Source: Umezawaea sp. (GTDB taxonomy: Bacteria; Actinomycetota; Actinomycetes; Mycobacteriales; Pseudonocardiaceae). Taken from it: a DNA stretch of 51,852 nucleotides. The position numbers were made by a program, and so were the translations under genes. The stretch covers positions 1 through 51,852 of the forward strand of contig JBDSAJ010000990.1 of assembly GCA_039922235.1 (NCBI GenBank), read 5' to 3'. The notes beneath the pieces are model-generated. The model searched no databases. It worked only from the letters and a program-made list of their open reading frames with translations, and had not been told where the DNA came from. Positions 59-30,506 of the stretch are shown here, one piece after another. Every line of letters starts with the position of its first letter. The first letter of the stretch is position 1.

Positions 59-694
59 ATGCCTACCACCAGCGCCGTGCTGCTGGCCACCACCCTGCTG
101 GGGTGGACCGCCAGCGCCGGATACGCCCTGCACCTGTTCCAGCGCCTGCACACCGACCCCCTGACCGGACTCGGGAACCGCGCCATCCTGGAGAGCATCG
201 CCCGCCGCGCCGCCCGCTCCCGCCACGGTGGCTCGGTCGGGTTGCTGCTGCTCGACCTCGACCGGTTCAAGACGATCAACGACACCCACGGCCACGCCGT
301 CGGTAACCACGTCCTGCGCGTCCTGGCCGCCCGACTGACCGCCGCCCGACGGCCCGGTGAGTTCCCGATCCGGCTACACGGCGACGAGTTCGCCCTCTGG
401 CTCGGGTTCCTGCCCTCCGGCGCCCGCGGTCGACAACTGGCGGCCCAACGGGCGGGCGAGATCCGGCGGGTGCTGGCCGAGCCGATCACCGTCGCCGGAA
501 CCCGGTTGTCCATTGCGGCCAGCATCGGCGCGCACATCCTGCCCGCGGCCGGACTGCCACTGCCCGCGCTGCTGGCCGGGGCCGACGCCGCCATGTACAC
601 CGCCAAACGCGGCGGACGCCTGTCGAGCCTGCCCGTCACCGGCCGCCTGCGCGACCACCACAACCACGACCGCACCGAGCGCGACAGCGCCTGA
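59..694 (+). CDS. GGDEF-domain protein with N-terminal membrane segment (variant HGDEF active site)
   Basis: TDPLTGLGNR, DLDRFKTINDTHGHAVG, RLHGDEF, ASIG and ADAAMYTAK motifs. Confidence 0.9.
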   Translation: MPTTSAVLLATTLLGWTASAGYALHLFQRLHTDPLTGLGNRAILESIARRAARSRHGGSVGLLLLDLDRFKTINDTHGHAVGNHVLRVLAARLTAARRPGEFPIRLHGDEFALWLGFLPSGARGRQLAAQRAGEIRRVLAEPITVAGTRLSIAASIGAHILPAAGLPLPALLAGADAAMYTAKRGGRLSSLPVTGRLRDHHNHDRTERDSA

Positions 695-769: not shown

Positions 770-1681
770 GTGTCCGATCACGCCGCCACCGCCCGACTCG
801 CCGAAGCGCTCATTGCCGCCGATCGCGGCTGGCATGTGTTCCCCGTCATCGCCAACAGCAAGCGCCCCGCGATCACTGACTGGGAGAACCGCGCCACCGC
901 CGACCCCGCGTCAATTCGTCGGTTCTGGACCAGGTACCCGACCTACAACGTCGGTGTCGCCACGGGACCCTCGAACCTGGTCGTGGTCGATCTCGACGTG
1001 GCCAAGTCCGGTCAGGTGGCCCCGGATGGCTTCAACATGCTCGGGGTGTCCGAGGGGGCTGATGTGCTGTCTGTGCTGGCCCAGCGGGCACACGCCACCA
1101 TCCCGGCCACCTACACCGTGCGCACCCCCTCCGGCGGTACTCACCTGTACTACCGGGTATCGACCGGTGTCCGGCTGCGCAACACCGCGGGCACCCTCGG
1201 CTGGCTGATCGACACCCGCGCACATGGCGGCTACGTCGTTGCCTCCGGATCGGTCCTGCCGACCGGCGCCTACGAACTCATGGTCGAGTCGTACCCGGCG
1301 ATTCTGCCCACCTGGATGGTCCAGGCCCTCACCGCCAGGCCCTCACCGGTCGTCTCAGCGACCAACCACAGCGCTCCTGCGCAGCGCGGTAAGTACCTGG
1401 ACGCGATCCTGCAGGGCGAACTGCGCAAGGTCGCAGCGGCGCAACCAGGCCGCCACAACAAGACCCTGTTCCAGGCCGCGTTGTCGCTGGGGCAACTGGT
1501 CGAGGGCGGCGAACTCGACCACGCCGAATCCACCGCCATGTTGCAGCATTCCGCCGCCCACATGGTCACCGGCACCTGCCAGTGCACCGCCCGCCAAATC
1601 GCCGACACCATCGCCTCCGGGCTGCGACTCGGCGCCACCCGGCCGCGTCGACTCGACAACGGTGGCGGTGTCGCGGCGTGA
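770..1681 (+). CDS. Bifunctional DNA primase/polymerase (Prim-Pol)
   Basis: GWHVFP, KRP, NVGVATG, LVVVDLD, TPSGGTHLYY and IDTRAHGGYVV motifs; GTG start follows AAGGAA. Confidence 0.9.
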   Translation: MSDHAATARLAEALIAADRGWHVFPVIANSKRPAITDWENRATADPASIRRFWTRYPTYNVGVATGPSNLVVVDLDVAKSGQVAPDGFNMLGVSEGADVLSVLAQRAHATIPATYTVRTPSGGTHLYYRVSTGVRLRNTAGTLGWLIDTRAHGGYVVASGSVLPTGAYELMVESYPAILPTWMVQALTARPSPVVSATNHSAPAQRGKYLDAILQGELRKVAAAQPGRHNKTLFQAALSLGQLVEGGELDHAESTAMLQHSAAHMVTGTCQCTARQIADTIASGLRLGATRPRRLDNGGGVAA

Positions 1682-1977
1682 CCGTCTACGTCGACAACTT
1701 CCGCGCCCCCGCTCGTGTCGGCCGGATCACCGGCCGCTGGTCGCACCTGGTCACCGACAACCCCGACCTCACCGAACTGCACGAGTTCGCCGCCCGCATC
1801 GGGCTGCAACGCCGCTGGTTCCAGACCGGCAAGCACGCCTACCGGCCGCACTACGACGTCACCGACACCAAACGCACCGCGGCCATCGCGGCCGGGGCCG
1901 TCCCGATCGACATCACCGAACTGGCCGACGTGCTGGCCCGCGCCCGCAACGCCGAATCCGGAAAGGACACGGCATGA
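1678..1977 (+). CDS. DUF4031-family protein
   Basis: VYVD...WSHLVTD...ELHEFAARIG...WFQ...HYDVT...AIAAGA; translationally coupled at both ends. Confidence 0.8.
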   Translation: MTVYVDNFRAPARVGRITGRWSHLVTDNPDLTELHEFAARIGLQRRWFQTGKHAYRPHYDVTDTKRTAAIAAGAVPIDITELADVLARARNAESGKDTA

Positions 1978-2675
1978 ACGTGCTGTCGCTGTTCGCCGGG
2001 ATCGGCGGGCTCGAACTCGGACTCGAACGCGCCGGGATGACCACCGTCGGCCAAGTCGAGATCAACCCGTTCGCCCGCTCCGTGCTCGAACGCCACTGGC
2101 CGGAGGTCCCCCGCCATGACGACGTCCACACCGCCACCACCTGGTGGCACTCCCAGCCCCGCCCACACGTCGACCTGGTCGCCGGAGGATTCCCCTGCCA
2201 GCCCGCATCCGAAGCAGGACCCCGACGGGGTACCGAAGACCCACGATGGCTCTGGCCCGCCATGGCCGACGTCATCGCCGACCTCCGACCACAGTGGGTG
2301 CTGTGGGAGAACGTGCCCGGTCTGCTCACCCGAGGACTGGACATCGTCCACGCCGACCTTGTCCGACTCGGATACCGGCACCGCGTGGGGTGGACCTCCG
2401 CTTGTGCAATGGATGCCCCACACGCACGCAAACGCCTGTTCGGTGTGGCCCACACCGACACACCGCGACGGGCCACGGGGAGCGGGCTACGACCGACCCG
2501 GACGCCCCCTGTCCGAACGCGTCGGTGGCCCGCTGAACCCGACGTGGATCGAGTGGCTCATGGGCTTCCCGGACGGGTGGACCGCGTCGCCGCCCTCGGC
2601 AACGCCGTCGTCCCCGCCGTCAGCGAATACCTCGGCCGACTCCTTCTCGCCAGCCATCACCAGCACGCGGCCTGA
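1974..2675 (+). CDS. DNA (cytosine-5) methyltransferase, alpha-type chain (motif IX not recognisable in this frame)
   Basis: LFAGIGG (I), GGFPCQ (IV), ENVPG (VI), PHARKRLF (VIII), LGNAVVP (X). Confidence 0.9.
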   Translation: MNVLSLFAGIGGLELGLERAGMTTVGQVEINPFARSVLERHWPEVPRHDDVHTATTWWHSQPRPHVDLVAGGFPCQPASEAGPRRGTEDPRWLWPAMADVIADLRPQWVLWENVPGLLTRGLDIVHADLVRLGYRHRVGWTSACAMDAPHARKRLFGVAHTDTPRRATGSGLRPTRTPPVRTRRWPAEPDVDRVAHGLPGRVDRVAALGNAVVPAVSEYLGRLLLASHHQHAA

Positions 2676-2688
2676 ACAGGACACCGCC
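2116..2688 (+). CDS. Overlapping alternative-frame MTase beta-like segment, in frame with the downstream DUF3987 gene
   Basis: Open frame containing WPTP and GPLNPTWIEWLMGFPDGW (motif IX-like, 2524-2580); true start unknown. Confidence 0.55.
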
Positions 2689-4224
2689 ATGACCACCGCC
2701 CGACCCCTGCACGCCGTCCCCGACGACCCGCCCACCGACCAGACACCCGACTGGGACGCACCGATGCCCTTGGGCAGCAGCCGACCCGTCCCGCTCTTCC
2801 CGGTCGACGCCCTGCCGGACTGGATGGCCGCCCACGTCACCGCGGTCGCCGACCTCACCCAAACCCCACCCGACCTCGCCGCATTCCTCGCCCTGGCCGC
2901 CCTGTCCACCGCCGCCGGGGGCCGGGTGCGGGTCGAGATCCGGCCAGGCTGGTCCGAACCGGTCAACCTCTACTCCGTCGTGGTACTCCCACCCGCCTCC
3001 CGCAAAAGCGCGGTGTTCAAGGCCATGACCCGACCGATCCGCGCGGTCGAAAAGGAACTGGTGGAACAAGCGAAAATCGACATCGAAGCCGCCCGGATCG
3101 GCCGCCGCGCGGCGCAGGAATTCGCCGACCGCGCCGAGAAAGCCGTGCTGTCGGCTGATGGTGCCGACCGCGACGCCGCACTCGAAGCCGCGGTCAACGC
3201 CGCCATGCAGGTCGACAAGAACGCCCCGCCCAAATCCCCCCGACTCATCGCCGATGACGCCACCCCGGAAGTGGTGGCAACGCTGTTGGCCGACCACGGC
3301 GGCCGCATCGCCGTGCTGTCGGCGGAAGGCGGCTTGTTCGGCACCCTCGCGGGCCGCTACTCCGGAGCGCCGAATCTCGATGTGTTCCTCAAAGGACACG
3401 CCGGGGATCTGCACCTGGTGGACCGGCAAGGGCGGGAAGCCACCGCCGTGGAAGAACCCGCCATCACGTTGGGGCTCACGATTCAGCCGTCGGTGCTGGA
3501 CGGGTTGGCGCGCAACGAATCCTTCCGCGGCACCGGCCTGCTGGCCAGGATCATGTACTCCCTGCCGGTCAACACCGTCGGCAACAGGATCTCCCGCCCA
3601 GTGGCGCCCGATCCGGAGATCGGCGACGCCTACGACCTCCGTATCCGGTCCCTGGTCCGCGAACTGGCCGAATGGACCGATCCCGCGGTGCTGGTGTTCA
3701 CCCCGGCCGCCGACGACCTCATGGCCGACCTGCAAGACGAGATCGAACCCCGCCTGCACCCCGTCACCGGCTCCTGGGCACACCTCGGGGACTGGGGCGG
3801 CAAACAAGCCGGACTCACCGCCCGCATCGCCGCCCTGCTCCACCTCGCCCACAACCCGACGAGCTGGGCCGGGGCCATCACCACCGACATCTTCACCGCC
3901 GCCCGCCGCATCACCGACTACGCCGCCCAGCACGCACTCGCCGCGTTCGACCGCATGGGCAGCGACCCCGTCATCGACGACGCCCACATGCTGCTGTCGT
4001 GGATCGAACGCACCAACCCGACCTCGTTCACCGTCCGAGAGCTGTTCACGACGGCCAGCCGAGCCCGGTTCAAGAAGGTCGCCGACCTCGCCCCCGCCCT
4101 GGACCTGCTTGAACAGCACGGCCACATCCACCAGGTATCGCCATCGGCGCACTCCGGACGGGGTCGCAAGCCCAGCCCGACCTACTACGTCCACCCCACC
4201 TACCGCACGGCAGGCCAGCCATGA
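2689..4224 (+). CDS. DUF3987/YfjI-family replication-associated protein
   Basis: FPVDALP, WSEPVNLY, PPASRKSA, DDATPE, SAEGG, GLLARIMY motifs and a C-terminal winged-helix-like tail. Confidence 0.8.
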   Translation: MTTARPLHAVPDDPPTDQTPDWDAPMPLGSSRPVPLFPVDALPDWMAAHVTAVADLTQTPPDLAAFLALAALSTAAGGRVRVEIRPGWSEPVNLYSVVVLPPASRKSAVFKAMTRPIRAVEKELVEQAKIDIEAARIGRRAAQEFADRAEKAVLSADGADRDAALEAAVNAAMQVDKNAPPKSPRLIADDATPEVVATLLADHGGRIAVLSAEGGLFGTLAGRYSGAPNLDVFLKGHAGDLHLVDRQGREATAVEEPAITLGLTIQPSVLDGLARNESFRGTGLLARIMYSLPVNTVGNRISRPVAPDPEIGDAYDLRIRSLVRELAEWTDPAVLVFTPAADDLMADLQDEIEPRLHPVTGSWAHLGDWGGKQAGLTARIAALLHLAHNPTSWAGAITTDIFTAARRITDYAAQHALAAFDRMGSDPVIDDAHMLLSWIERTNPTSFTVRELFTTASRARFKKVADLAPALDLLEQHGHIHQVSPSAHSGRGRKPSPTYYVHPTYRTAGQP

Positions 4225-4225
4225 C

Positions 4226-4551
4226 CAGCCGCAATAGCCGCAGAAGCCGCAGAATTCCCGAACCGCCCTGTTTACCCAGGTCAGCGCGGTCGCGTCTGTG
4301 GAGGGAGTCCAGCCGCAGAAAAGCCGCAGAAAAGCCGCACAAATACCCAGGCCCCGCAGTCGCGCCCGTGACCGAAGTCCGCCGAAGGGGCCGCGGCCGG
4401 TCGCCGCCACCGAGGACGGCCAGGCCGGACTGAATTCTGCGGCTATTTTGCGGCTTTTCTGCGGCTAGACCCCATGATCACTCGCATACCACCTGACCAG
4501 CACAAACACGCCGCGAGCTGAATTCTGCGGCTATTGCGGCTATTGCGGCTG
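4226..4551. repeat. Nested inverted repeats built from 12 AGCCGCA units (candidate origin)
   Basis: 4226-4257 matches the reverse complement of 4520-4551 at 30/32; inner triplets at 4311-4340 and 4432-4466. Confidence 0.85.
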
Positions 4552-4566
4552 CCCGAGGAGGACTCC

Positions 4567-5769
4567 ATGCCCCAGCCCGGACGACGCCCGCCCATCGGGG
4601 TCAAGGTGTCCGACGACATCGAGTACATGCCGAACCGCCCCACGCCCTACCGCGCCCGCATCCGGTGGACGGACCCCGAGACGCGGAGCCGCTGCTCGAT
4701 GTCCGAGTCGTGCGAGAACGAGGACCAGGCCCAGGCGTGGATCGACTCGATGAAGCAAGCAGCAGCCGGAGGCGTCGACCCGACCGCGGGAACCATGACT
4801 CTCGCCGACTACGGGAACGCCAACATGAAGCTGGCACTCCGCGGACTGGAGGCCAAAACGACCGATCCCTACCTGGCCGGATGGCGAAAACGCGTGGTCC
4901 CGACCATCGGGCACATCGCCGTCCAGATGGTCAGCTACGGAGTTGTCGACCGCGCGGTACACGGGTGGATCGCCGACGAGTGCGGACGTTCGACGGTGAA
5001 GAACAGCATTGCCGTGCTGGTCCGCGTGATGGAGCAGGCGTTGCGTGACGAGATCATCGACCGGAACCCTGCTCGGATCACCGGATGGCAACGGGAGTAC
5101 GCGCGTGCCGAGGACGAGTTGGACGATCCGCGTTTGCTCGCGCTGCCGGATTGGACGGCGCTGACTCGACTTGCCGACGGGTTGGTGTCGCGTTCCGCCG
5201 ACGAGTACGAGGGTTGGCGCGATGTTGTGCTGTTCGCCGCGTGTACCGCAGCGCGTATCGGCGAAGTGTCGGGTTGCCGAGTGAAAGACCTCGATACCAA
5301 CGAGTGGACGTGGAACGTGCGGCGCCAGACCACGAACGGCCCAGGAGGTTTGATCGACAAGGGCACCAAGGGAAAACGTGCCCGCCGGGTGCCGATCATC
5401 GAAGAGATTCGCGAACTCGTGCAACGCCGAATCAGCAAGACGGACGGGACCGAGGACGCACGGCTGTTCGTCGGACCACGGGGAGGCAGGATCTCCACCG
5501 CGGTCTTTCGCGACGCGACCCACTGGGACGAGGTCGTGAACAAGCTCGGCTACGAGCACCTGCGGCGCCACGACCTGCGGCACACCGGGTTGACGTGGAT
5601 GGCCGACGCTGGGGTGCCGGTCCACCACTTGCAGAAAATCGCCGGGCACGGCTCGCTCACCACAACGCAGCGGTACCTGCACCCCAACCGCCAGTCGGTT
5701 ACCGACGCGGGAGCGCTGCTCTCACAGCACCTCCAGCGGGCAACCACACCGCGGCTACGGGTCGTGTAG
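4567..5769 (+). CDS. int: Tyrosine recombinase/integrase
   Basis: ARIGEV, HDLRHT, AGH and TTQRY catalytic motifs; RBS GAGGAGG. Confidence 0.95.
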   Translation: MPQPGRRPPIGVKVSDDIEYMPNRPTPYRARIRWTDPETRSRCSMSESCENEDQAQAWIDSMKQAAAGGVDPTAGTMTLADYGNANMKLALRGLEAKTTDPYLAGWRKRVVPTIGHIAVQMVSYGVVDRAVHGWIADECGRSTVKNSIAVLVRVMEQALRDEIIDRNPARITGWQREYARAEDELDDPRLLALPDWTALTRLADGLVSRSADEYEGWRDVVLFAACTAARIGEVSGCRVKDLDTNEWTWNVRRQTTNGPGGLIDKGTKGKRARRVPIIEEIRELVQRRISKTDGTEDARLFVGPRGGRISTAVFRDATHWDEVVNKLGYEHLRRHDLRHTGLTWMADAGVPVHHLQKIAGHGSLTTTQRYLHPNRQSVTDAGALLSQHLQRATTPRLRVV

Positions 5770-5903: not shown

Positions 5904-5908
5904 GACCG

Positions 5909-5982
<74 letters not shown>

Positions 5983-27079: not shown

Positions 27080-29497
27080 TTAAGCCAGTTCCTCCGCGCG
27101 GGCCTTGCGCACTCCGCGTAGCACCATGCCCCGCCGATCACGGATGATGCGGACCTTGCGACCTTCCATGTTCTTCCGGAACGTGATCTTTCCCCACGGG
27201 CGTGACGCCCCGCCCAGCTCGACATCCGCCCAGTCCTGATAGGCGTTGAACGCGTCGTCGAGCGTGATCCGGGCCTCGGGGTCGCGCACGAGCACGCCCG
27301 GTAGGAACCCGTCGAGAATGTCGCTCGACCGCCGGTACTCGCGGACGGCCGACAACACCGACTCGGGTTCGCGCAGCCCCTCGGCGTACCACTGCACCGC
27401 ACCGCGCACGGCCCACGCGGCGATACCGACCGACTCGGCAAGCAGCGTCACGGGGAGTGCTGCGTCCTTGTCGGTACCCGCGAACTCTCGGGCGAACGGG
27501 ATGAGTCTGGTTCGCCTCCAGAAACCGTCATCCTGCCCGCGCACGTCGGGCCGATAGTTCGTCGCCATGAGCATCAGCGCCGTCGGCGTGAACGTGAACT
27601 GTCCTTTGTAGAGTTCACGAGCGACCACAGGGTCACCGGCCGTGATCTGCTTGAGCAACGCCTCGTTGAGGCGCAACCCCTCGGACAGCTCGGAGAGCAC
27701 CGCCAGGCGCACACCACGCAGCGCAGCGAGCGCGGGGTTGGCCGCACTCGGGTCGAATGCCCTGGTCTGGGCAATCGCGGCTTGCGACATGTGTCCAGTG
27801 ATGCCTGCGAACACCGTCGCCAGTGCGTTGACGAACACGCTCTTGCCGTTGGAACCGTGGCCGTAGAGCAGCGCGAACACGTGCTCACGCGTCTCGCCTG
27901 TGATGCCGTAGCCGACGAGCCGTTGCATGAACCCCGGCATCTCGGGGTCCTCGGGGAAGACCTCGCCGAGGAACCGTGTCCACCTCGGGCAGGCTGCCTC
28001 GGGGTCGTAATCGAGATCGACGAACCGGGTCAACCGGTCCTCGCGTCGATGCTCGCGCAGCTCCCCCGTGGTGAGGTCGACGGTTCCGTTGCGGAAGGTC
28101 AGCAGATCGTGCCGCGCGTCGAACTCGGTCACCTCGGCGGCGGTGATCGTTCGGAGGTGTTCGAGTGCGGCCCGGATGCCCGAATCCATGTGCATCCGGC
28201 GCGTGCGCTTGACCGCTTGGACGTACTCCTCATGGTCGCGCTGCTCCGCTCGACTGCCGTCCTTGTCGCCCTTGGGCATCGCGGCCAGCTCACGCGCCAT
28301 TGCGTCGGCGACTCGATGCCCGATCGCCCGCTCACGGGTCGTGCTCATGACCTGCCAGATACGCCCGGACCAGGTGAGGAAACCCACGCCGTCCACGTGC
28401 GCGGTGTCCTCGCCAACGATCGTGAGCGCCAACCGGGCGTTTTCGATATCGGTTCCGAGGGTGGCCTTGAGCTTGTCCCGCTTGGGCGGTGGCGGTGGCG
28501 GATCGCTCGGCGTGGCCTCCTCCCCCTGTGCCCATTCGACCGCCTCGGCAACCGCTCGATGCAGTGCCGCGCTGAACTGATCGGGTGCCGCAGCGCGCCA
28601 GTCCGCAAGGTCGCCGTACTCCTCGGGGATGCGCAGCACACGGGCGTGGATGCCGAGTGCCTTGAGCCCTGCGCCGAGCGCGTCGTTGAACTCACGTCCG
28701 GCCTGGTCGTTGTCCCCGGCAAGAATCACCTCTCCCCCCGCGGCGCCAACGGCGAGTTCCGTGATGGTCCGCTCGGCGCGTGCCACCCCGGCACCACGAA
28801 CGGCCACGGCGGTGTATCCGGCCGCAACTGCGGTGAGGGCATCGCCCGGTCCCTCGGCGACCACAACCGTCGGGAAGCTGTCACCGGTCCGTAGAACGGC
28901 CGTCGCGTCCCATCTCATGCCCTCGGCGGGCGAGGCCAGGTTGAGCCACCTCGCCGGACAACCGTTGCCAACATCGCGACCTTGCAAGCCCCTCGGCATC
29001 CCGGACCAGTCGACGAACGGGACGACCAAGCGCGGATGCGCGAGGTACCCAGACGTCCGGTAGTCCTTGGCGCGGCCGACGCTCACCGTGCCGTCGTCGA
29101 ACCCGAGGCGCAGTTGTCGCCCCATGTCCTCGGTCAACCCGAACCGGTCGCGGGCGTACTCGGCGGCCCGTGAGCCCGCGAATCGTCCGGCCGCCGCGTT
29201 GACGTAGGTGGCCAGCGCGGCGACGACGCCCGGAGCCAGCTCGACCGGCGCGACCGTCGAGAGCGTCGGTTCGCCGGTCACCTCGAACAAGTCCGACTCG
29301 GCGAGATCGGCTGCTTTGAGAACGTCGGCTGTCTTGCAGCCCGCGCGGCAGTAGACCAGTGCCCGCCGTTCGTCGGTGAGCGACACGAACAGACTCGGTC
29401 GTCCGTCGCCGTGCGCGGGACAGGTGACCAGCACGCCGCCGCGTTCGTCGAGCACAAGCCCGTTGCCGAGGCGGTCGAGCAATCGATCAATGTGCAC
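27080..29497 (-). CDS. Primase-helicase (Zn ribbon, TOPRIM, P4/D5-type SF3 helicase)
   Basis: CPAH...YCRAGC; EGPGD, GDND; GHGSNGKS; ITAGD, FWRR. Confidence 0.95.
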   Translation of the reverse strand: MHIDRLLDRLGNGLVLDERGGVLVTCPAHGDGRPSLFVSLTDERRALVYCRAGCKTADVLKAADLAESDLFEVTGEPTLSTVAPVELAPGVVAALATYVNAAAGRFAGSRAAEYARDRFGLTEDMGRQLRLGFDDGTVSVGRAKDYRTSGYLAHPRLVVPFVDWSGMPRGLQGRDVGNGCPARWLNLASPAEGMRWDATAVLRTGDSFPTVVVAEGPGDALTAVAAGYTAVAVRGAGVARAERTITELAVGAAGGEVILAGDNDQAGREFNDALGAGLKALGIHARVLRIPEEYGDLADWRAAAPDQFSAALHRAVAEAVEWAQGEEATPSDPPPPPPKRDKLKATLGTDIENARLALTIVGEDTAHVDGVGFLTWSGRIWQVMSTTRERAIGHRVADAMARELAAMPKGDKDGSRAEQRDHEEYVQAVKRTRRMHMDSGIRAALEHLRTITAAEVTEFDARHDLLTFRNGTVDLTTGELREHRREDRLTRFVDLDYDPEAACPRWTRFLGEVFPEDPEMPGFMQRLVGYGITGETREHVFALLYGHGSNGKSVFVNALATVFAGITGHMSQAAIAQTRAFDPSAANPALAALRGVRLAVLSELSEGLRLNEALLKQITAGDPVVARELYKGQFTFTPTALMLMATNYRPDVRGQDDGFWRRTRLIPFAREFAGTDKDAALPVTLLAESVGIAAWAVRGAVQWYAEGLREPESVLSAVREYRRSSDILDGFLPGVLVRDPEARITLDDAFNAYQDWADVELGGASRPWGKITFRKNMEGRKVRIIRDRRGMVLRGVRKARAEELA

Positions 29498-30506
29498 CGG
29501 TCACCCCCTCCGTTGTGTTGGTGTGCACACCACAAATGGCAGCGCGGGTAAGCACCTCGACCAGCGCGCGGACGGCTGTTTCCCCTTGCAGCGGCACCAC
29601 TCCGTTGCCGCACAGCCCGAGGGCCTGGTTGACCGAGACACCCGGCACTGCGGAGACCCAACCGTCCGGCAACCCCATTGCCCACTCGGTGAACCGTGGC
29701 GACAACTTCGGTCGGCCGTGTGGCCCCTCGATCGCCGGTCGCGGAGCTGGACGCCCTAGGACTCGCTCCCACCGGTCGATAGCGGCGCTGTACTCACCCC
29801 AGTCGAGTCGGTGCCCGTCCTCGGTGCGAGGACGTAGCGAACGATCGCGTCCAAGCTCGCGCCCGACTGACGTCCGTTCCCCGGTCGTCCTCCGCGACGC
29901 CCATGACCGTTCGGCGACAACCCGGTATCCGGGGTCGGCAACAGCCTGTTCACGCTGCCCGTCAACGTGTCCGGACGCTCGGAAGTCGAGCCCAGAACCG
30001 CCCGTCGCGAATCCGACGCGCGTGGGGTCGACAGCAACGACAAAGACCCGGTCTCGTCGATGAGGTGCCCCGACGTCGGAAGCTCGCAGGCTTCCCCATG
30101 CGACGAGATACCCCAGCGTGGCCAGATCCGCGAGAACGTCGCCGAACCCCTTGGATCGGTGGCCGGGGACGTTCTCCAGGACCACGACGCCTGGTCGAAG
30201 TACGCGAATGCCCTCGGCGATGTGCGGCCAGAGGTGACGCGGGTCATCGGCCCCCTTTCGTTGTCCGGCAAGGGAAAACGGCTGGCAGGGATACCCCGCC
30301 GTGAGGACGTCGACCCGAGGGACGCTTGTCCAGTCGACCGCCCGGATGTCGCCGAGGTTGGGCAGGTGCGGCCAGTGGTGCGCGTGCACCTTGATCGCCG
30401 CGTCGTCGATCTCGGAGAACCACACGGTCCGGGTGCCGAACACCGCGTTGGCGGCGATGTCCAAACCCCCGTATCCCGAGCACAGAGAACCGCTCGTGAG
30501 GGTCAT
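29487..30506 (-). CDS. Phage DNA (cytosine-5) methyltransferase
   Basis: LCSGYGG, AGYPCQPFS, ENVPG, PHRRDRVF, LSPRFTEWAMGLPDGW, GNGVVP. Confidence 0.93.
   Translation of the reverse strand: MTLTSGSLCSGYGGLDIAANAVFGTRTVWFSEIDDAAIKVHAHHWPHLPNLGDIRAVDWTSVPRVDVLTAGYPCQPFSLAGQRKGADDPRHLWPHIAEGIRVLRPGVVVLENVPGHRSKGFGDVLADLATLGYLVAWGSLRASDVGAPHRRDRVFVVAVDPTRVGFATGGSGLDFRASGHVDGQREQAVADPGYRVVAERSWASRRTTGERTSVGRELGRDRSLRPRTEDGHRLDWGEYSAAIDRWERVLGRPAPRPAIEGPHGRPKLSPRFTEWAMGLPDGWVSAVPGVSVNQALGLCGNGVVPLQGETAVRALVEVLTRAAICGVHTNTTEGVTGAH
29756..30271 (-). CDS. Overlapping alternative-frame ORF inside the MTase gene (LLPTP-type repeats)
   Basis: 171-aa open frame with LLSTPRASD and LLPTPDTG units. Confidence 0.45.
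   Translation of the reverse strand: MPDNERGPMTRVTSGRTSPRAFAYFDQASWSWRTSPATDPRGSATFSRIWPRWGISSHGEACELPTSGHLIDETGSLSLLSTPRASDSRRAVLGSTSERPDTLTGSVNRLLPTPDTGLSPNGHGRRGGRPGNGRQSGASLDAIVRYVLAPRTGTDSTGVSTAPLSTGGSES

Follow-up and report, generated by a model that had tools for sequence, protein, structure and literature searches.

The DNA considered here, a contig of 51,852 nucleotides (nt) from Umezawaea sp. (JBDSAJ010000990.1; hereafter the window), carries part of an apparent actinomycete integrative and conjugative element (AICE) in which a gene for a C5 cytosine methyltransferase precedes the gene for a replication protein, Rep. The methyltransferase gene seems to encode two chains: alpha, in the main frame, and beta, nested within alpha in the +1 frame. 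The beta frame has no stop before Rep, so that beta and Rep would form a single protein. Judged by comparison of homologous loci, this beta–Rep fusion is real, recurrent and facultative. The coupling is facultative because beta is stopped in 6 of 25 homologues followed by a Rep-type gene and because Rep keeps a start of its own. Translation of the fusion at this locus is very probable; its selection as a tether of the methylase to Rep has about an even chance of being right. Nested two-chain enzymes are already known, and what is new is the read-through into Rep: no recurrent fusion of a nested chain to Rep was found in the accessible published literature, from which most subscription papers were absent.

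The two methyltransferase chains

Alpha has the catalytic PCQ and ENV motifs and the Rossmann fold of the C5 cytosine methyltransferases, and its C-terminus is GNAVVP, motif X (the motif numbers, I to X, are in both chains those which we take to apply). Its match to PF00145 is limited to residues 1–162 (E 1.5e-34), its best sequence match in the PDB is M.HhaI, and Foldseek finds likeness to M.HhaI and DNMT1. In the AlphaFold model the Rossmann core and the last helix are confident, residues 166–209 are disordered (predicted local distance difference test, pLDDT, <50) and an ordered small domain is absent. The target recognition domain (TRD) and motifs IX and X, which lie in one chain in the monomeric type, are not united in alpha; motif IX is found in the +1 frame. 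The original prediction, made from the letters of the window, of a methylase frame at 1974–2675 with catalytic motifs and motif X but no motif IX is therefore upheld.

The +1 frame reads WPTPTHRD...GPLNPTWIEWLMGFPDGW and then passes into a DUF3987 protein (E 1.7e-101). Its motif-IX-like stretch, WPTP...LNPTWIEWLMGFPDGW, had been predicted to match the methylase of a prophage in the window, and the prophage segment, LSPRFTEWAMGLPDGW at about 29687 on the reverse strand, does align to the beta profile (E 2.4e-5). The frame had been described as open from 2116 to 4224; it is stop-free already from 2041, and from the ATG at 2116 it encodes 702 amino acids (aa). A contig of run X1, which may be the source sample, spans 2334–4291 with zero differences and zero gaps.

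The case for beta as a gene comes from homologues. Alpha was found at 201 non-duplicate loci, comprising 181 dual loci, 9 truncated ones, 10 unresolved by the patterns used and a single-chain one. At 181 of the 201, down to a guanine-plus-cytosine (GC) content of 44%, alpha has motif X and the +1 frame has motif IX, and in 179 of the 181 the open stretch of beta starts no later than alpha codon 70 and takes in motif IX. The beta ATG survives in 56 of 70 loci of high GC, where the His-Asp of HDDV is spelled CAT GA, against a background of 30 CAT codons among 408 His codons in downstream genes; in the same loci the codons for Pro-Glu-Val yield GGAGG 8–9 nt before the ATG. The start is present in 31 of 100 lower-GC loci, 11 loci being without the motif. 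Among five close homologues, the variable columns fall mainly at alpha third positions as far as codon 140 (23/43 and 36/61) and mainly at beta third positions across alpha codons 141–185 (14/29). The overlap with motif IX is nearly invariant in these five, and the variable WPTP segment is constrained in the beta frame.

Structure prediction points the same way. A complex of alpha, S-adenosylhomocysteine and beta residues 60–159 gave an interface score (ipSAE) of 0.91, whereas none of three controls rose above 0.00; the mark used is reached by 116 of 157 solved pairs and 2 of 215 mismatched ones. The score shows fit, not binding, because a gene cut in two can pass through the likeness of its halves to solved monomers. 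Contacts agree between runs to 84% or more, the partner has a pLDDT of 64 or higher, and beta 142–156 is placed against alpha 204–215 and motif I. An assembly frameshift is ruled out by the conservation of the frames in homologues and by the gapless X1 contig, and a programmed frameshift likewise, since motif X would be lost and a conserved start exists. Beta is thus, judged by conservation, a real gene, and from the sequence context it is in all probability translated from the ATG at 2116 by way of GGAGGT. The predicted likeness to the two-chain methylase M.EcoHK31I is strongly supported by the conserved start, the layout in 181 of 201 loci, the complex model and the shift in codon position, and the enzyme is almost certainly a two-chain cytosine methyltransferase of that kind.

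The family is large, with about 5100 metagenome and about 4600 viral stretches estimated from collection scans to match the alpha patterns, and its layout varies. L305 of phage Che9d (45002–45760) and related genes of cluster-related mycobacteriophages belong to it, at about 50% identity, and are annotated in one frame. The prophage C5 methylase in the window (29487–30503, reverse strand) is itself dual-coded, with a nested +1 open reading frame (ORF) at 29756–30271 (reverse strand; 171 aa) whose likeness to the profile of beta has a probability of 92.7 (E 4e-7); its motif IX is in the main frame and the inner chain ends before it, a different split point. Loci L032 (G224) and L033 (G191) share a frame change at the alpha end which places IX in the alpha frame and X outside it, reflecting a pseudogene common to both or a further arrangement of the chains. 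In P0007, P0019 and P0035, helix-turn-helix or HNH-type inserts lie within the methylase gene and the protein called there runs on into the beta frame.

Read-through of the beta frame into Rep

Beta stops before the alpha stop in 157 of the 181 dual loci, overruns it by 4–16 nt in 4 and is open into the next gene in 20. In all 20 that gene lies in the beta frame, albeit with less than 90 nt of sequence beyond alpha in two of them (L039 and L049). Beta stops in all of 24 further viral loci; among another 56, whose overlap with the 24 was left unchecked, it stops in 53 and overruns by 10–37 nt in 3. The usual stop arises where Leu-Ile of the last alpha helix is written CTG ATC; open loci have CTC or another residue.

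The identity of the next gene was called from third-position GC in 67 high-GC loci; 11 offsets were fixed manually, and 58 of the loci were scanned against Pfam. A Rep class comprising DUF3631, DUF3987, AAA_25 and the Pfam-less L001/L004 type (L039 being classed from 11 residues) follows alpha in 25 of the 67, and in 20 of these 25 it lies in the beta frame. Beta is stop-free in 19 of these 20, namely in the window and 18 related elements, against 7.1 expected from synonymous recoding of alpha. It is open in none of the five loci with Rep out of frame (1.5 expected), in one of eight with another gene in frame (1.35 expected) and in none of 34 with another gene out of frame (8.4 expected). Specificity of the fusion for Rep is not established, the other in-frame genes being open about as often as expected. 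The partners in read-through are DUF3631, DUF3987 and AAA_25 proteins and one Pfam-less protein, of the L001 type, which weakly resembles DUF5906 primase-helicases (0.93; 166/256 features). Linkers in fused loci measure 32–52 residues, and the junctions with these partners have offsets of -11, 1, 4, 7, 13, 31, 37 and 46. Elements with read-through include L011 of Lentzea aerocolonigenes and L009 of Dactylosporangium fulvum.

Controls were DUF3631 and DUF3987 genes behind other genes with a junction within 100 nt, from which alpha-preceded loci, L362 (an alpha hit), uncalled loci and L278 were excluded. The +1 phase occurs in 15 of 96 of them (8/45 in the same family and 7/51 in the family of G701), compared with 20 of 25 behind alpha (Fisher p 2e-9, uncorrected for kinship). 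Control genes in this phase are open for at least 36 codons upstream in 8 of 15 cases, compared with 19 of 20 (Fisher p 0.011). Six changes of the open state, three of them forced by starred branches, are needed on a quick tree built from 67 alpha proteins (L036 being omitted because of a deletion), and a single read-through clade is rejected (approximately unbiased test, p 4.5e-5). Within one open clade of 10 members the partners swap among DUF3631, DUF3987, DnaB-N-DUF3987 and AAA_25. Class-wide and other-family genome searches contributed few extra loci.

None of six fused proteins looked up is on record, and one free beta is likewise absent. A protein search with beta residues 95–165 for annotated beta–Rep fusions gave 23 candidates, none at E 0.001, and among 216 matches of the beta profile to longer proteins DUF3631 or DUF3987 occurs in none of the 120 listed. 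Neither search is informative, the probable reason being that gene callers place the start at the ATG of Rep.

A number of observations weigh against a selected fusion. When alpha of the window is recoded synonymously, the beta frame stays open from His48 to motif IX in 11% of draws and from IX to Rep in 65%; chance openness at a single locus is not small, and the evidence therefore rests on the homologues. Here the closest relatives are divided. L001 (83% identical to alpha) reads through and L002, L003 and L004 (83–86%) stop beta 38 nt before the alpha end; hence three of the four closest homologues are stopped, L003 and L004 being followed by a Rep-type gene at -4, unfused. Counting these two, the fusion is missing from 6 of the 25 Rep-followed loci (L003, L004, L006, L017, L026 and L031), L031 being in frame but stopped, and an obligatory fusion is thereby ruled out. 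The conservation expected by the original prediction accordingly holds in 19 of 25 Rep-followed loci and fails in six. Every fused Rep keeps its own start; that of the window (AGGA, ATG at 2689) would allow a free Rep of 511 aa. The last 40 or so bases before this Rep match G077, and the junction looks recombinant (near 2647) because the same leader stands there behind a different gene; the offset of 13 also recurs in two more control junctions. The Rep class was defined after the loci had been seen. Only five independent pairs fall on starred branches, too few for a sign test to reach significance (p 0.5–1), and for this reason the Fisher and Poisson figures overstate the case. The predicted complex may owe its pass to likeness to solved monomeric C5 methylases, and the helicase N-terminus takes fusions readily, a PAPS-reductase-like domain in P0002 being an example. 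DUF3631 is also often fused behind Toprim domains. Since Rep N-termini accept partners so easily, a beta–Rep fusion is plausible, but also cheap.

Three features of individual loci may be recorded here. In L001, L011, L013, L015 and L024 mini-ORFs of about 12–17 codons run from the alpha stop to the Rep start through a double -4 overlap, a possible translational coupler. L036 (1297–1911) has lost about 40 alpha codons in frame, including the catalytic-motif region, and its beta still reads into DUF3631. P0002, which falls in the same 90% cluster as window 2689–4224, has its helicase behind the PAPS-reductase-like domain in one record.

Tether, by-product or expression device

If the fusion is a tether, alpha would be made from 1974, beta–Rep from 2116 and free Rep from 2689. 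A ribosome starting at 2116 would, as follows from the sequence, make a beta–linker–Rep protein of 702 aa. Alpha is predicted to dock onto motif IX of beta, and beta–Rep would enter Rep oligomers, bringing alpha to the element DNA via the linker; there the methylase may act at the element origin or fork and mark new copies. The entry into oligomers and the action at the element have roughly even odds. New copies might thus be shielded from restriction, probably in the next host, a benefit suggested by what is generally known of orphan methylases carried by mobile elements. On this view the beta–Rep arrangement is favoured in many AICEs without being required. A bolder proposal, which falls a little short of an even chance, is that AICEs repeatedly wire a methylase to the replicon by one silent letter, CTC fusing beta, the likely DNA-recognition subunit, to any of four unrelated Rep types and giving an enzyme that is replication-tethered and element-preferring, and CTG a free one. 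Any beta chain made here had been expected to be a fusion to Rep, and the sequence agrees, although Rep can also start alone at ATG 2689. The proposed coupling of methylation to replication would be facultative, and its physical side is inferred. The gene parts are as originally described, save that the beta GGAGGT at 2102–2107 and the AGGA and ATG 2689 of Rep had been overlooked.

The fusion may instead be a tolerated by-product of a real two-chain enzyme, its stop drifting away wherever shuffling puts Rep in the +1 phase; out-of-frame read-through would be purged, in-frame read-through harmless, and the counts inflated by a few clades. This is possible but rather unlikely. It accords with the stop kept at 39 of 39 out-of-frame high-GC junctions (9.9 open expected), with a beta stop toggled by one alpha-synonymous change (CTG/CTC before Ile), with the recombinant look of a window junction whose Rep module already had a 13-nt leader, and with the 8 of 15 open control junctions. 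The double ATGA overlaps via mini-ORFs also give a +1 phase, and the test on independent pairs has no power. It leaves unexplained, however, the phase bias behind alpha, seen also in the Micromonosporaceae, where all six DUF3631 genes behind alpha lie in +1 and none of the DUF3631 controls within 100 nt does so. Nor does it account for the openness of 19 of 20 junctions, as the site should be saturated between loci of 49–67% identity.

It is less probable still that the arrangement is an expression device, in which the strong ribosome-binding site of beta supplies extra Rep or an unstructured Rep start and no tether is needed. Beta has a perfect GGAGGT and the window Rep AGGA alone, the damaged L036 (one locus) keeps its beta open, and unfused elements mostly couple Rep to the alpha stop through a -4 overlap; yet strong ribosome-binding sites precede several of the fused Reps themselves (L001, L011 and L212), and fused loci conserve both the core of beta and the interface predicted between it and alpha. 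That beta is not made from 2116 at all, with alpha acting alone or a frameshift joining the frames and the long ORF a high-GC artefact, is very improbable. Beta has no match in Pfam, NCBIfam or the PDB, and long open off-frames are common in high-GC DNA. Against this stand the conserved ATG and Shine-Dalgarno sequence, the presence of motif IX in +1 even at 44% GC, the want of an ordered small domain in alpha, the loss of motif X that a frameshift would entail, and the precedent of M.EcoHK31I for a nested chain.

Should the tether have been selected, it would provide a natural way of aiming DNA methylation at one replicon, and would bear on how a mobile element can keep restriction off its fresh copies while the methylome of the host is left as it was. 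Annotation misses the beta–Rep switch because the change is silent in the annotated protein. For a gene family that is very common in phages and AICEs, annotation is put right by the beta start and the layout in two chains, even should the fusion prove neutral.

The element and its relation to known systems

The features of the locus are collected below.

Features of the methylase–Rep locus and its element in the window
Feature	Coordinates	Strand	Basis
GGDEF-domain gene of the element	59..694	+	PF00990, E 1.5e-33
Prim-Pol primase-polymerase of the element	770..1681	+	PF09250, E 7.5e-46
DUF4031 gene, 4-nt overlap with the alpha start	1678..1977	+	PF13223, E 3e-24
Alpha (233 aa), C5 cytosine methyltransferase core with motifs I-VIII, and motif X	1974..2675	+	PF00145, PDB match, AlphaFold, Foldseek
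Beta Shine-Dalgarno GGAGGT, in alpha codons Pro-Glu-Val, 8 nt 5' of the ATG	2102..2107	+	Sequence; same context in most high-GC homologues
Beta chain (predicted), +1 frame, ATG 2116, Ser/Thr/Pro-rich N-terminal part	2116..2583	+	ATG conservation, codon-position shift, complex model
WPTP TRD-like segment of beta	2446-2538	+	+1 frame
Motif IX of beta	2530-2583	+	+1 frame
Beta linker without a stop (about 35 codons), which overlaps motif X of alpha	2584..2688	+	Sequence and homologues
Site of the beta stop in relatives (CTG ATC)	2640-2645	+	Homologues
Rep ribosome-binding site AGGA (2678-2681) and ATG 2689, in beta frame, 13 nt past the alpha stop	2678..2691	+	Sequence; same leader in G077
Rep, a predicted helicase of 511 aa (DUF3987 protein) forming the C-terminal part of the 702-aa frame	2689..4224	+	PF13148, E 6e-102
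Tyrosine integrase	4567..5769	+	PF00589, E 1.7e-25
tRNA-Pro, likely integration site	5908..5982	-	ARAGORN; adjoins integrase

Like an AICE, the window has an integrase adjoining a tRNA gene and a module of Rep and Prim-Pol, and in related loci the order is Tra – Prim-Pol – methylase – Rep – Xis – Int. An FtsK/SpoIIIE Tra gene is found in L011 and L013 and, below the cut-off, in L009; it lacks a score in L001, L003, L007 and L010. The window begins at the contig end; attL and the left element end were not found in G000, and attempts to join another contig to the window gave no link. The named close homologues of the locus come from Umezawaea and Actinosynnema. The methylase cassette is optional, as a contig of run X3 joins Prim-Pol directly to Rep, and no partner endonuclease was seen among the annotated neighbour genes. 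The window Rep has what looks like a variant Walker A, PPASRKS, recognised by eye and missed by the pattern, and no PDB match. Between Rep and integrase, at 4236–4330 and 4432–4548, repeated GCCGCAGAA units oppose TTCTGCGGC units (by eye), resembling the hairpin origin of pMEA elements as far as described in the available text of PMC2440964.

Other systems offer partial parallels. A C5 methylase is held at the replication machinery when DNMT1 binds PCNA, an interaction that is non-covalent, eukaryotic and obligatory. It is an analogy only, since the link here is a gene fusion that is facultative and made by way of an overprinted frame.

AICEs are described, in the accessible parts of PMC3218068 and PMC2440964, as carrying Prim-Pol with RepAM (DUF3631), or RepPP, as replication modules. 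RepAM is described as an origin-binding initiator which binds repeats in its own gene, a helicase role not having been demonstrated (PMC2440964, in part). The window shares Prim-Pol, Rep, integrase and tRNA with these elements, and related loci share their gene order; it differs in having, between Prim-Pol and Rep, a dual-coded methylase that runs on into Rep, a fusion that does not appear in the available portions of either paper. The PriCT-DUF3987 protein AgaPH is, according to the available text of PMC11724360, a 5'-3' helicase which forms oligomers and binds its Prim-Pol. Both it and the window Rep are DUF3987 proteins encoded downstream of a primase-polymerase in an integrative element and bear an extra N-terminal domain. 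That domain is PriCT in AgaPH and a methylase subunit here, the phyla differ, and the window helicase is a predicted one.

Among methylases, M.AquI likewise makes one C5 enzyme from two chains, but its small chain has both IX and X (PMC3404938, in part), whereas here X is on alpha and only IX is nested. The closest parallel in layout is M.EcoHK31I of E. coli HK31, a heterodimeric C5 methyltransferase recognising YGGCCR (PMC2836561 and PMC3404938, each in part); the likeness is one of layout and described features, and a search of plasmids with beta gave no enterobacterial match. In both enzymes, as far as the available descriptions go, the large chain has motifs I–VIII together with X, and the IX chain, with a long N-terminal part, is nested in the other frame with its own start, for which conservation speaks here (ATG in 56 of 70 loci, GGAGG upstream). 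The TRD of M.EcoHK31I is reported on its alpha chain; here alpha is nearly without a variable region and the WPTP segment is in beta. Its beta chain is free, whereas here no stop precedes Rep; according to the accessible part of PMC2836561, M.EcoHK31I beta is nonetheless active with a zinc finger fused to its C-terminus.

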